Shown piece by piece: positions 12,394 to 15,686 of a stretch of 64,000 nt of DNA. Below the pieces are notes generated by a model. It had not been told where the DNA came from. It saw nothing but the letters and a program-made list of their open reading frames with translations, and did not search any database. Each line of letters starts with the position of its first letter. Within the stretch, counting starts at the first letter, position 1. Made by a program: the position numbers and the translations under genes. Source of the DNA: Candidatus Dormibacteria bacterium. GTDB lineage: Bacteria; Chloroflexota; Dormibacteria; DASZGP01. The DNA is taken from positions 5,668 through 69,667 of the forward strand of contig JBPCPW010000013.1 of the NCBI GenBank assembly GCA_050998755.1. Direction: 5' to 3'.

Positions 12394-13821
12394 GTGCAAT
12401 TCATCGCGATCGACTGGTCGGGCAACGCCTCCAACGCGGCGCGGTTCACCGCAGTGGCTGTCGTGCGCGAGGGCGCCCTGGTCAGCGTGGAGACAGGGCG
12501 CACCGGGCGGGAGCTGGCCGACCATATCCGGGACCTGGCCGCCGCAGACTCCCAGACCGTGGTCGGTCTAGACTTCGCGTTCTCGGTACCCGCGTGGTAT
12601 CTCCGGTACAGGAACTTCGCCAACGTTGAGGAGCTCTGGCGCGCCGCCCGCAGCGAGGGCGAGAGTTGGGTGAAGGGCGAGTCGCCGTTCTGGGGGCGCC
12701 CGGGCGTGAAGCGCCCGGACCTCGAGCATCACTTCCGGGCGACTGACCGGGCGGTGCCTTCGGTCGGTGGGATCTCGCCGAAGTCGGTCTTCCAGGTGGG
12801 CGGCGCGGGAGCGGTGGGGACCGGGTCTGTCAGGGGTTGGCCTTTCCTGTTCGATCTCCTGGAGCGCGGCTTCCGCATCTGGCCGTTCGAGGATGGATGG
12901 CCCCTGGTCATCGAGATCTACCCGCTTATCCTCACCGGACCGGTCATCAAATCGAGCGCTGCGGGCCGTCGAGCTTACCTGGAGGACCCGCGCTGGCAGC
13001 TGCCCGACCGAATGATCGGGATGGCGGCGGCATCTGAGGACACATTCGACGCGGCCGTCTCGGCGCTGGTGATGGCGCAGCACGCGGAAGAACTGATCTC
13101 GCTCAAGGCCACAACCGACCCGCAGACCATGCTCGAAGGCGCAATCTGGTTCCCGCCGTCAGCGTCCGTCGAGCCCCTGCATCCATGCCTTCCCGAGGGG
13201 CCGTTGCTGACGGATCGCTTCGAAGACGCACTGACATTAGCGGCCAGGGTCCACCGGACGCAGGTGCGGAAGGGCAGCAACCTTCCGTATGTCGGCCATC
13301 TGCTCGGCGTCGCGTCTATCGTGCTCGAGGAGGGCGGAGACGAAGACCAGGCGGTCGCGGCGTTGCTCCACGACGCCGTCGAGGACCAGGGCGGTCTGCC
13401 GATGCTCGACGAGATCCGGGGGCGGTTCGGGCCGCGGGTGGCGGGCATTGTTGAGGGCTGTACCGACGCGGTGACCAATCCCAAGCCGCCCTGGCGGAAG
13501 CGCAAGGAGGACTACCTCGAGCACCTGTCTCTAGCGCTGCCCGAAGTCTTGCTGGTATCGCTGGCCGACAAGCTCTTCAATGCACGCTCGATCCTCCTGG
13601 ACTACCGCCGGGTCGGCGACGCGGTGTGGGAGCGCTTCCACGCGGGTCGCGACGACCAAGTCTGGTACTACCGGCAGTTGGCCGACATCTTCATGAGCAG
13701 CGGCGACCTCGTGCCCCACGTGCTGGCGAGCGAGCTGGACCGGGTGGTCACCGAGATCGAACGCCTGCCCGCGGGCCGTGCTGGAACCGGGTCGGTTGAG
13801 CACCGTCGCGACCCCGTGTGA
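12394..13821 (+). CDS. Two-domain protein: an N-terminal ~280-aa domain of unknown function (begins IAIDWSG; possibly an RNase-H-like fold, DUF429-like) fused to a C-terminal SpoT/RelA-type HD hydrolase domain (small-alarmone-hydrolase-like).
   Basis: The C-terminus HLLGVASIVLEEGGDEDQAVAALLHDAVEDQGGLPMLDEIRGRFGPRVAGIVEGCTDA...LVSLADKLFNARSIL matches the (p)ppGpp-hydrolase HD pattern (H...HD..ED...KLADRLhN). GTG start at 12394. Confidence 0.7.
   Translation: MQFIAIDWSGNASNAARFTAVAVVREGALVSVETGRTGRELADHIRDLAAADSQTVVGLDFAFSVPAWYLRYRNFANVEELWRAARSEGESWVKGESPFWGRPGVKRPDLEHHFRATDRAVPSVGGISPKSVFQVGGAGAVGTGSVRGWPFLFDLLERGFRIWPFEDGWPLVIEIYPLILTGPVIKSSAAGRRAYLEDPRWQLPDRMIGMAAASEDTFDAAVSALVMAQHAEELISLKATTDPQTMLEGAIWFPPSASVEPLHPCLPEGPLLTDRFEDALTLAARVHRTQVRKGSNLPYVGHLLGVASIVLEEGGDEDQAVAALLHDAVEDQGGLPMLDEIRGRFGPRVAGIVEGCTDAVTNPKPPWRKRKEDYLEHLSLALPEVLLVSLADKLFNARSILLDYRRVGDAVWERFHAGRDDQVWYYRQLADIFMSSGDLVPHVLASELDRVVTEIERLPAGRAGTGSVEHRRDPV
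13751..13818. repeat. Direct repeat copy A (~68 bp; the first 29 bp are identical to copy B at 15619-15686).
   Basis: ccgagatcgaacgcctgcccgcgggccgt is shared exactly, followed by ~40 bp of roughly 70% identity ending in ..cgcgaccccgt. It encodes the C-terminal tail (EIERLPAGRAGTG...) of the HD-fusion protein. Confidence 0.75.
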
Positions 13822-13838
13822 CACACGAAGTCCCGCAT

Positions 13839-14813
13839 TCACGTGCTCGCCGTCCTCCGCTCGATCACTTCCACCGACCGCTCTAGCCTCTGCTGAAGCG
13901 ATCCACGAATTACCTGAAACTTCCGGCCGATCCGGCTCAACTCGGCGATGAACCTCCCGTGCATCCACTCCCGGAGATGCTCGCCGTCACGGTAGCCGTC
14001 CTGCACGAACGGGATGTCCACGTCGGTGAGCAGGTATAGGTCGTACCGCCGCGAATCCGCGATCGCCTGGACCGCCCGAGACGGGTAACCGAGATAGCGC
14101 TCGTGCCAGATCGCCGTGGCTAGGGCGTCGGTGTCGCACAACAGGATTCGGTTCGCGTCGCGCGCCGAGGCGTCCTCGCGCCGGCACTGCTCACGGGCGA
14201 CCATCTCGAACTCCTCGCTCTCCCACTTCGCATCGATCCCTTTGACCTGTTCGGTGTACTCGCGCCCGTACTCCGGGACCCAGGTTGTCCGAAAATGCGC
14301 CGCGAGCGCGCGGGCGAGCGTTGTCGTCCCGGTCGATTCCGCGCCGACGATGCAGACCCGGCGGACGAAATGCGCGCGCACGCAGGGCTCGAGGTGGTCC
14401 CATTGACCCAGCGGGTCGGCGCGCACAGCCGTCCCGGAGCACGGTACCTGGAGACGCGCCCGGTCGACCTCGACGTGCGCGGCACCCAGCAGCTCCGCGA
14501 AGCGGGCTCCATACGCCTCTGAGGTGAACACCGCGTCAGGCGCGTAGCCCAGCCACTGCCGGGTCAGACGTGCCCAGAGCTCGGAATCGTCATCTGGGTA
14601 GATGTCGTCGATCAGCCGGATATCAGCAGTTGGGTGGATCTCGCGCATCCAGGCAGCGCGCAACTCGCCAGGGATGTCGTGCTCCGTGCGGTGGCAGACG
14701 AAAACGGTGAGATGCTCGACCTGGGCCAGGGCCGTGTCGATGACCAGCTTGTGCCCGCGGTGCGGCGGGTAGAACTTGCCGAAGACGACCCCGGTCCTAA
14801 ACGGCGACGGCAT
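13839..14813 (-). CDS. nadR: NadR-type bifunctional NMN adenylyltransferase / ribosylnicotinamide kinase. No HTH domain. Start probably at the internal Met, MPSPFRTGVVFGKF.
   Basis: Nucleotidyltransferase motif GKFYPPHRGH (HxGH). P-loop-like IVGAESTGTTT in the C-terminal kinase domain. Adjacent to pnuC. Confidence 0.75.
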   Translation of the reverse strand: MPSPFRTGVVFGKFYPPHRGHKLVIDTALAQVEHLTVFVCHRTEHDIPGELRAAWMREIHPTADIRLIDDIYPDDDSELWARLTRQWLGYAPDAVFTSEAYGARFAELLGAAHVEVDRARLQVPCSGTAVRADPLGQWDHLEPCVRAHFVRRVCIVGAESTGTTTLARALAAHFRTTWVPEYGREYTEQVKGIDAKWESEEFEMVAREQCRREDASARDANRILLCDTDALATAIWHERYLGYPSRAVQAIADSRRYDLYLLTDVDIPFVQDGYRDGEHLREWMHGRFIAELSRIGRKFQVIRGSLQQRLERSVEVIERRTAST

Positions 14814-15516
14814 CGATCGCCTCGCGCCGACCCGACCATGATGAGGACCGGCGGAGGGACGTCCGCCACTGCGCCACCCCGGCGATGCACATCGCCAGGA
14901 AGACGGCATAGAGCACCGATGTCAGGTAGAGGTGGCGCGAGGCATATAGGCCGATGTAGATCATGTCGGCGGTTATCCAGACGAACCAGTTCTCGATGAG
15001 CTTGCGGGTCAGCAGGTACTGGGCGACCAGGCTCAGGACGGTGGTGAGGGCGTCTAGGAAGGGTGCGGAATCGTGGACGCGGGTGAGGAAGATCGTCAGC
15101 CCCGTGGTCGCTGCCAGGGTTATGGCGACGAGCGCCAGCGCGACCCGCGTCCGCGTACGCCCTACCGAGAGCGGCGTGCGGCTCTCACCACCCCGCATCC
15201 ACCAGTACCAGCCGAGGAATCCGAGCACTATGTGGACGACCTGCAGCGACATGTCGGCGAACAGCCGGGCCTGGAAGAAGAGCACCAAGTAGAAGGCCGA
15301 GTTGGCGATGCCAATGGGCCAGTTCCAGATGTTCGCCTTCACCGTGAGCCAGACGCCCCAGCCGCCGGTGACGAAGCCGAGCACCTCGGTTAGGTCCATT
15401 GGAACTCGATGCGTTGCCGCGCCGGCAATGAGGATGACCGAGCCCAGCACCCCGGCGCAATAGCCCAGGGGCCTGAAGACGGTGGTGGACGGCAGGGTTT
15501 TGGTCAAGTCGACCAT
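14797..15516 (-). CDS. pnuC: PnuC-family nicotinamide riboside transporter.
   Basis: About 7 TM segments. The WNWPIGIANSAFYLVLFF region is typical of PnuC. It sits directly upstream of nadR with a short overlap. Confidence 0.72.
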   Translation of the reverse strand: MVDLTKTLPSTTVFRPLGYCAGVLGSVILIAGAATHRVPMDLTEVLGFVTGGWGVWLTVKANIWNWPIGIANSAFYLVLFFQARLFADMSLQVVHIVLGFLGWYWWMRGGESRTPLSVGRTRTRVALALVAITLAATTGLTIFLTRVHDSAPFLDALTTVLSLVAQYLLTRKLIENWFVWITADMIYIGLYASRHLYLTSVLYAVFLAMCIAGVAQWRTSLRRSSSWSGRREAIDAVAV

Positions 15517-15618
15517 TAGGCTACTCCAGCCTTTAGGTTATGTCAACCCAAACCTGGGTCGGCGCCCATCAGGCCATAATTCGCCGATGCAGGTCAGTGC
15601 TGGTCCACCACCCCGATC

Positions 15619-15686
15619 CGAGATCGAACGCCTGCCCGCGGGCCGTCCTGGAACCCCGGTCCCTTGACCGCGCTGGCGACCCCGTA
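15619..15686. repeat. Direct repeat copy B; spans the 5' end of the phosphatase gene.
   Basis: Same 29-mer as at 13751, then a diverged tail. The TTG start of the phosphatase gene (15664) lies inside the repeat. Confidence 0.75.

Follow-up and report, generated by a model that had tools for sequence, protein, structure and literature searches.

Transposon target-site duplications, which arise at insertion as direct copies of the target on either side of the element, are typically 2 to 14 bp long. Phage morons are autonomous promoter-gene units inserted between adjacent operon genes, and a PnuC-NadR module for nicotinamide riboside salvage is known in Haemophilus influenzae. Genomic islands in the 3' ends of genes have direct repeats at both ends, the attL and attR sites, in which an identical core is accompanied by arm sites. 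In E. coli, Campbell-type integration, the single-crossover integration of a circle with short homology to the chromosome, duplicates that homology on both sides of the insert (109–950 bp; PMC3240628). Here we describe a pnuC-nadR unit bracketed by two direct repeats in Candidatus Dormibacteria, in a 64,000-nt stretch of contig JBPCPW010000013.1 (assembly GCA_050998755.1) that we call the window and in which all positions are counted. The repeats are probably two copies of an ancestral gene junction, at which the stop codon of an HD-domain gene overlapped the start codon of a phosphatase gene in the sequence TTGA, and which was duplicated when pnuC-nadR inserted, leaving what is now a passive scar.

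The 2 repeats were delimited by reading of the sequence, by a repeat finder and by alignment. Copy A (13751..13817, + strand) is 67 nt long and copy B (15618..15685, + strand) 68 nt, and 58 of the 68 aligned columns are identical (about 85% overall), the total divergence amounting to 9 substitutions and 1 indel. Direct repeats flanking pnuC-nadR, as reported in the initial annotation of this DNA, are therefore real; the start given there for copy A was exact, and for copy B the start and end move from 15619 and 15686 to 15618 and 15685. The longest exact block common to both copies is the 29-mer CCGAGATCGAACGCCTGCCCGCGGGCCGT, which had been described as identical in two places and which indeed has exactly 2 sites in the window, even with 3 mismatches tolerated, and none in 100 dinucleotide-preserving shuffles. 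Identity is concentrated in bases 1 to 38 (37/38), with bases 39 to 68 containing 8 mismatches and the 1-nt indel (about 73% identity). Despite this lower identity, the second half is true homology; the score of these 30 nt was reached by 2 of 20,000 random 30-nt windows. Both copies finish on the 10-nt block GCGACCCCGT, so that a shared ending, noticed earlier as cgcgaccccgt, stands with a corrected extent. Beyond the repeats similarity ends sharply on both sides, with 9/30 and 6/30 identities in the outer flanks. When the window is compared with itself, copies A and B form its best repeat, and no further members of a repeat family occur in the 64 kb.

Between the copies lies the inserted module, 1,800 bp in length (13818..15617, − strand), which is bounded by the sharp repeat ends and opposes the flanking operon. 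It is composed of a 21-nt spacer, nadR and pnuC, and 101 nt upstream of pnuC, and the sequences at its borders are ...GACCCCGT| and |CCGAG....

The coding content of the 2 copies reveals what has been repeated. Copy A codes for the end, ...TEIERLPAGRAGTGSVEHRRDPV followed by the stop, of a 475-amino-acid fusion of a DUF429 domain (RNase-H-fold nuclease-like) with an HD_4 domain (12394..13821, + strand; Pfam HD_4 4e-23, DUF429 weak and below the cut-off), which NCBI names an HD domain-containing protein of Candidatus Dormibacteria. The last 22 codons and the stop of this gene lie in or just past copy A, and the C-terminal codons within the copy read EIERLPAGRAGTGSVEHRRDP; in this HD family, EIERL is conserved as a motif at the C-terminus. 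Copy B codes for ...SEIERLPAGRPGTPVP and a stop, which terminates a 61-amino-acid open reading frame (ORF) that we regard as meaningless, and the relic of the HD tail in it reads EIERLPAGRPGTPVP before the stop. The TGA of this ORF (15665–15667) overlaps, as TTGA, the TTG start (15664–15666) of a 176-amino-acid gene for a DSP-type protein of the protein-tyrosine-phosphatase (PTP) fold and the PTP-SAK family (15664..16194, + strand; Pfam PTP-SAK 7e-22). NCBI annotation gives the same 176-residue product, and a conserved motif of the N-terminus, P-[YF]-Q-R-S-Y-W-V, fixes where the start region lies. Up to this point the coding statements of the initial annotation, with copy A as the tail of the HD fusion and copy B as a short ORF ending at the phosphatase TTG, were correct.

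Copy A, however, also holds a relic of the phosphatase start. In a comparison anchored on copy B and on 4 relatives (L052, L041, L040 and L046), positions 13796..13816 (+ strand) contain TTG and six further codons, TTG AGC ACC GTC GCG ACC CCG (M-S-T-V-A-T-P), which the insert cuts at codon 8, and which correspond to the live start in copy B, TTG ACC GCG CTG GCG ACC CCG (M-T-A-L-A-T-P). A 1-nt deletion in copy A relative to copy B bypasses the old TGA. Because copy A contains this truncated start in addition to the HD tail, the repeated unit is the whole gene junction and not a protein motif, and the dead phosphatase start is explained only by duplication of that junction.

The same observations bear on whether a functional motif, coding or regulatory, might have been kept twice for its own sake. 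Such a motif could draw on the conservation of EIERL at the HD C-terminus, and translation signals could sit upstream of the phosphatase start, but the copies agree at nucleotide level in all synonymous positions of the 29-mer, no real or conserved gene covers the opening 46 nt of copy B, the homology edges are sharp, and the homology runs across the dead phosphatase start in copy A. A structured RNA signal is also lacking, as folding of both copies and of the phosphatase leader gave Z-scores of +0.3, +1.1, and −0.2, and an Rfam scan of 11–19 kb (E <= 1) returned no match, and hence no NAD (nicotinamide adenine dinucleotide) riboswitch or other known RNA in the module leader or the repeats. 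We consider a functional motif extremely unlikely; its purely coding version, raised as an objection in the initial annotation, is excluded by the synonymous-site identity, the non-coding start of copy B and the sharp edges.

Relatives of the locus display the junction in its undivided form. In 4 of them (L052, L040, L046, and L041) the upstream HD or DUF429 gene directly abuts the phosphatase gene without pnuC-nadR between, and in 3 of these (L052, L040, and L046) the stop of the upstream gene overlaps the phosphatase start as TTGA or GTGA. Full-length relatives of the HD fusion are 66% to 73% identical to it. The closest, L052 (73%), ends in ...EIERLHQQTVPAESA with a TGA that overlaps the phosphatase TTG, and its tail after EIERL has the same length as that of copy B and the same TTGA overlap. 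L040 (66%) has a TTGA overlap followed by the phosphatase and then an ADP-ribosylglycohydrolase (ARH) gene, in L046 the HD_4 gene is short and overlaps as GTGA, and in L041 a DUF429-only gene stops 2 nt before the phosphatase, which is again followed by ARH. The 2 halves of the fusion thus occur separately at the same operon position, DUF429 alone in L041 (980-1828, 72% identical over the N-terminal 261 residues) and a short HD_4 alone in L046. None of the 7 phosphatase-bearing relatives has pnuC-nadR upstream of the phosphatase, and their backbone runs (AddB)-YbjN-like-HD fusion-phosphatase-ARH-...-WYL-ARPP-1. A scan of the genome collection with the HD fusion yielded HD-domain relatives only (48% to 62% identity), and 2 of these, more distant HD loci from other phyla (L012 and L032), have PTP and ARH genes nearby. 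Comparative genomics, which had been named earlier as a check, therefore shows a direct HD-phosphatase junction without the module, and the junctions of L052, L040, L046, and L041 bear out the earlier reading of the repeats as the footprint of an insertion with duplication or recombination.

The sequence of events would then be as follows. In the ancestral state the stop of the DUF429-HD_4 gene overlapped the phosphatase start (TTGA). A self-contained 1,800-bp pnuC-nadR unit with its own upstream region would have entered this junction in reverse orientation, in this Dormibacteria lineage, and its insertion would have duplicated 68 bp comprising the last 15 HD codons and the first 7 phosphatase codons. 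Copy A would have gone on to supply the HD C-terminus, with a later 1-nt deletion leading to a new stop 7 codons further on, and copy B would supply the phosphatase TTG start, the first seven codons, and 46 nt of upstream sequence. Because the junction was duplicated, neither neighbour was broken. Two routes of duplication, a step for which we infer the mechanism, appear about equally likely. In one, a circular DNA on which the module lay beside a copy of the junction would have integrated into the chromosome by a single crossover of the Campbell type. The other is a one-step duplicative insertion, in which either a staggered break was filled in or replication switched template to the module and then returned to a point 68 nt upstream.

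The geometry of the locus is that expected of Campbell-type integration, such as that of suicide plasmids or that in the single-crossover events of E. coli conjugation (PMC3240628): the insert is bracketed by duplicated homology with sharp borders, copy A continues leftward into HD and copy B rightward into the phosphatase, and similarity stops abruptly at the insert borders. In both cases a dedicated recombinase is unnecessary and a reverse crossover would restore the site precisely. The locus differs in that its homology is 67/68 nt rather than the 109–950 bp of that study, in that the copies have since diverged, and in that no circular donor, plasmid backbone, or origin of a junction-bearing circle was identified for it.

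Several points weigh against duplication of the junction as the explanation. The polarity of the event rests on parsimony, with the closest relatives about 27% diverged in protein. The donor locus or circle for the module was not found, so that microhomology at the junction cannot be checked and the 2 routes are indistinguishable, and the Campbell-type route in particular requires a circle that already bore the junction, the origin of which it does not account for. The divergence between the copies is uneven along the repeat (1/38 versus 9/30, Fisher p = 0.004), and 8 of the 9 mismatches are G<->C transversions, all but one of the mismatches falling within the last 30 nt. Copy B is almost unchanged over its first 46 nt, which are under no selection. 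Finally, polarisation of the differences by outgroups gives a mixed result: after the TTGA, copy A resembles the state of L052 and L041, with their base at 4 of 5 sites at which the copies differ, and copy B, with TGACCGC, is like L046 and L040. A plain duplication with neutral decay afterwards, which fits the mismatch bias poorly, predicts neither the near-unchanged start of copy B nor this split outgroup affinity.

These same features invite an origin from 2 alleles, in which the module arrived on DNA of a related lineage that had its own diverged HD/phosphatase junction, so that the second halves of the repeats would represent donor and recipient alleles. Donor and recipient DNA could have been joined through homology-facilitated illegitimate recombination, in which one homologous crossover in the HD 3' end is paired with one illegitimate join, or else through a crossover inside the first 38 nt. 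Both M-S-T-V-A-T-P and M-T-A-L-A-T-P resemble natural phosphatase N-termini, as 2 alleles would, and the uneven divergence, the G<->C bias and the split affinities after the TTGA are suggestive of such an origin; a divergent patch in nadR of a contig from the same population (L051, below) is also consistent with recombination among diverged alleles. The signal, though, comes from about 5 informative sites, and the heterogeneity along the repeat becomes borderline (p = 0.04) when the strongly conserved first 18 nt, the EIERL codons, are left out. Such a donor must moreover already have had the module beside an HD/phosphatase junction, which merely moves the origin one step back, and none was present among 80 metagenome NadR loci. 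We therefore regard a 2-allele origin as unlikely, and favour the duplicated ancestral junction.

The arrangement itself is reproduced in other assemblies. Two Logan contigs from SRR33880236 match the window at 100% identity, one over HD-copy A-nadR (L038) and the other over pnuC-copy B-phosphatase (L050), and L051, a JGI contig assembled from another sample, agrees with it base for base from the HD end through copy A and the junction into approximately the first 270 nt of nadR. In L051 the identity extends over 675 nt and is followed by two adjacent differing bases (columns 676-677). Its positions 913-971, corresponding to window positions of about 14348-14406 in nadR, contain approximately 12 mismatches in the last 60 nt or so, and this divergent end represents a recombinant allele of nadR in the population or else a chimeric end of the contig. 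The source of the window is a metagenome assembly and short repeats can mislead assemblers, which raises the prospect of a chimeric contig in the metagenome-assembled genome, with an unrelated pnuC-nadR fragment spliced in by way of the repeat. We find this barely credible: junction A recurs in a Logan contig and, in a different sample, in a JGI contig, a second Logan contig contains junction B, the longest exact repeat (29 nt) is in our judgement too short for a typical assembly to merge loci through it, 2 diverged copies of a junction would not result from a chimeric join, and the composition of the module matches that of its host.

Direct repeats at both ends also bear on whether the module can leave. 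In principle, recombination across the 29 to 38 identical bases would remove 1,867 bp and bring back the ancestral TTGA junction. RecA-dependent exchange in E. coli needs at least about 25 nt of identity, and the identity here is close to that minimum. No excised form was seen, reads not having been examined: 3 of 3 independent assemblies of this population are in the filled state, and an excised-type HD tail is absent from the 90%-identity protein cluster, which contains the copy-A tail only (its members P0363 and P0364 are unrelated). Empty sites were found only in relatives at least 27% diverged. The initial annotation had suggested that the repeats could allow precise excision of the cassette; this holds in principle, but actual excision is not borne out, given 29 nt of uninterrupted identity, no recombinase, and 3 filled assemblies out of 3. 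Deletion of the module across the repeats could occur only as a rare accident.

An active, reversible cassette would nevertheless account for some features of the repeats. In such a cassette the 29- to 38-nt core would act as attL/attR-like sites, used by a recombinase encoded elsewhere or by host recombination, and the operon would toggle between a coupled and a split state. The repeats lie at the exact ends of a compact functional module, their first 38 nt are nearly identical although those of copy B are free of coding selection, and a 10-nt palindrome, GCCCGCGGGC, lies inside the core. A recombinase was looked for in vain: the insert codes for NadR and PnuC only, with no recombinase or transposase by Pfam, and no integrase, resolvase, or transposase domain was found among the Pfam-scanned genes from 2.5 to 25.8 kb, a region in which Pfam matched nothing in two ORFs and in which the Mrr gene was covered through precomputed hits only. 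The repeat occurs nowhere else in the window, and an exact 26-mer of the core has 0 matches in viral contigs and 0 in JGI metagenome contigs, a collection that evidently lacks L051, which carries it. With the repeat halves diverged and carrying an indel, only filled forms among near-identical sequences, and none of 80 other NadR loci at such a site, we judge an active cassette very unlikely. Highly improbable, too, is a working site of a recombinase-less module whose 38-nt core has been kept by repeated excision and re-insertion through host recombination or a trans-acting nuclease (for example the RNase-H-fold DUF429); if it were true, the locus would alternate between two states, an HD-phosphatase-ARH operon with translational coupling and a split arrangement that includes nicotinamide riboside salvage.

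The resemblance to attL/attR islands is accordingly superficial only. Like these, the locus has direct repeats at both ends, its target is a gene 3' end, and a gene end borne by the element keeps both the interrupted gene and its neighbour functional. Unlike them, it has no integrase or excisionase, its insert is 1.8 kb with two metabolic genes, and its repeats are 85% identical overall, at a site with no other occurrence in the window or in the collections searched. The exact block followed by a diverged half with an indel fits an old duplication as well as a core site. As with transposons, a direct duplication of the target flanks the insert, but at 67/68 nt, without a transposase, and with no terminal inverted repeats pairing the ends of 13818–15617 according to the repeat finder. 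Integron cassettes differ as well: no integrase was found among the scanned genes, the repeats are direct copies of host genes rather than an imperfect-palindrome attC, and the module has its own 101-nt upstream region. By inspection, for which no formal dif model was used, the repeat contains no 11-6-11 dyad of the Xer dif/pdif kind (28 nt, with 11-nt arms and a 6-nt spacer). The module shares with phage morons its character as a compact, self-contained unit placed between genes that are adjacent (here overlapping) in relatives, with a function unrelated to the order of the operon; it differs in its chromosomal context and its orientation against the operon, and a duplicated junction is not a hallmark of morons. 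A search of viral contigs with NadR gave one distant match (31%) and no sign of phage carriage. The scar is of a known genomic type, from an ordinary insertion with no sign of an active mobile element, and it leaves the current understanding of mobile DNA unchanged.

The genes of the module are those of a vitamin-B3 salvage unit for nicotinamide riboside. The nadR-type gene (13839..14813, − strand) encodes 324 amino acids, a form on which the NCBI and Logan gene calls agree, and its product is predicted to combine nicotinamide mononucleotide (NMN) adenylyltransferase and ribosylnicotinamide kinase domains (Pfam AAA_28 2e-37, CTP_transf_like 3e-5). Directly preceding it on the same strand, pnuC (14797..15516, − strand) encodes a predicted nicotinamide riboside/NMN transporter of 239 amino acids (Pfam NMN_transporter 1e-49). 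A PF04973 transporter followed by a cytidylyltransferase-like/AAA_28 enzyme matches the domain content of a PnuC-NadR salvage module. The unit differs from the described modules in that no N-terminal helix-turn-helix (HTH) domain was detected in the NadR-type protein by the Pfam scan, in that there is no adjacent gene for an NrtR-type regulator and no NrtR-type operator box common to the module and the nrtR-pnuC intergenic region of L048, and in its unusual position within a gene cluster for ADP-ribose processing. For NadR and PnuC the nearest relatives are 70% to 77% identical, and the window contains no second copy of the module. Its content of guanine plus cytosine (GC) is 0.61–0.68, and at third codon positions (GC3) 0.82–0.87, which is host-like. 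A composition test gave no sign of a foreign origin, the module being indistinguishable from the host in GC and GC3, and since these match we infer that it came from the same or a similar genome or has been long resident.

The 101 nt upstream of pnuC (15517..15617, with no strand assigned) have the lowest GC of the locus and came with the module. This region would be the sole candidate site for the pnuC-nadR promoter and, divergently, for a new phosphatase-ARH promoter. A scan for promoter and terminator consensus sequences from 13.6 to 15.8 kb found nothing. A weak TTGACA-17-TAGCCT read by hand (15517-15546, − strand) ends one base before the annotated pnuC ATG; it is too weak to count and was not accepted by the scan. 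If it were real, either pnuC would be transcribed without a leader or its translation would begin further downstream.

Insertion of the module would have changed the expression of its neighbours. The HD gene and nadR now converge, their stop codons 17 nt apart and no terminator predicted. The phosphatase-ARH pair (ARH: 16176..17099, + strand, Pfam ADP_ribosyl_GH 1.5e-65, with ATG 16176 as the probable start) appears to have lost both the HD promoter and its translational coupling to HD, and would now have to be expressed from the 101-nt region borne by the module, although the relic ORF that ends in TTGA may still provide coupling for the phosphatase. The locus illustrates cleanly how, in nature, a transcription unit of foreign or relocated origin can come to lie inside translationally coupled, overlapping genes, neither of which has been destroyed, and the scar fixes the ancestral gene order and shows the module to be a late addition.

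How far this placement is peculiar to the lineage was assessed with a neighbourhood survey of 80 metagenome NadR loci (39% to 64% identity). A PnuC relative is present in 61 of them, and HD, phosphatase, ARH, WYL, or ARPP-1 genes are near NadR in none. Because neither the 7 phosphatase-bearing relatives nor the 80 NadR loci share the arrangement, pnuC-nadR appears from these comparisons to be a common two-gene unit whose position here is derived and, in the available data, unique to this lineage. The closest pnuC-nadR with visible neighbours, L047 (1-2693; JGI 3300015195; PnuC 77%, NadR 70% identical), has a distant ARH paralogue (27% identical to the ARH of the window) after pnuC-nadR in the same operon, a second, independent link of nicotinamide riboside salvage with ADP-ribose hydrolysis. 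In the window, the predicted genes for uptake of nicotinamide riboside and re-synthesis of NAD lie amid an ADP-ribose/nucleotide-processing cluster (HD, DSP phosphatase, ARH, ARPP-1, and WYL regulator). In view of the linkage in L047, this hints that NAD salvage was recruited to an ADP-ribose-processing locus with a functional connection to NAD turnover, without amounting to proof.

The surrounding genes belong to a neighbourhood that has been described before. The Pfam description of PF20208 defines an ARG/rhodanese-phosphatase/ARPP-1 neighbourhood in which ADP-ribosylglycohydrolase, DSP-type phosphatase, and ARPP-1 occur together, and the window contains all of them (PTP-SAK, ADP_ribosyl_GH, and ARPP-1 at 1e-76). 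The trio of PTP, ARH, and ARPP-1 with the WYL regulator is also found in L043-L046, and ARH adjoins the phosphatase downstream in every relative, as seen in L040, L041, L043-L046, and L012. At window positions 2539-25828, a conserved Dormibacteria backbone consists of an AddB-like PDDEXK nuclease, YbjN/TY-Chap3, DUF429-HD_4, DSP phosphatase, ADP-ribosylglycohydrolase, WYL/WCX regulator, and ARPP-1. By comparison with L040, L041, and L043-L046, this backbone is interrupted by lineage-specific genes: a PLD-helicase with DUF3427 (5875-8979), Mrr_cat (about 9015-9905), the two ORFs without Pfam match (10017-12023), a Hist_deacetyl gene (17096-18247), and a PIN gene (20062-20484). The 2539-25828 locus looks like an insertion hotspot of defence-island flavour.

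Further along the window, four PIN-domain toxin-like genes (20062-20484, 26554-26931, 39376-39882, and 42067-42489) and a Fic/DOC gene with a C-terminal HTH (37698-38867) form an unusually dense toxin-antitoxin-like set within 25 kb, with no integrase or transposase among the scanned ORFs. Between the WYL regulator and ARPP-1, a 102-amino-acid ORF (21898-22206, + strand) matches the Pfam 'Luciferase domain' PF17648 (1.6e-19); in relatives this slot holds other small ORFs or none. Three adjacent ORFs at 18001-20046 (− strand; 227, 200, and 245 amino acids) are mutual paralogues with 27% to 28% identity, and the third matches TY-Chap3, a YbjN-like chaperone fold of which single copies flank the HD fusion in L039, L040, and L043.

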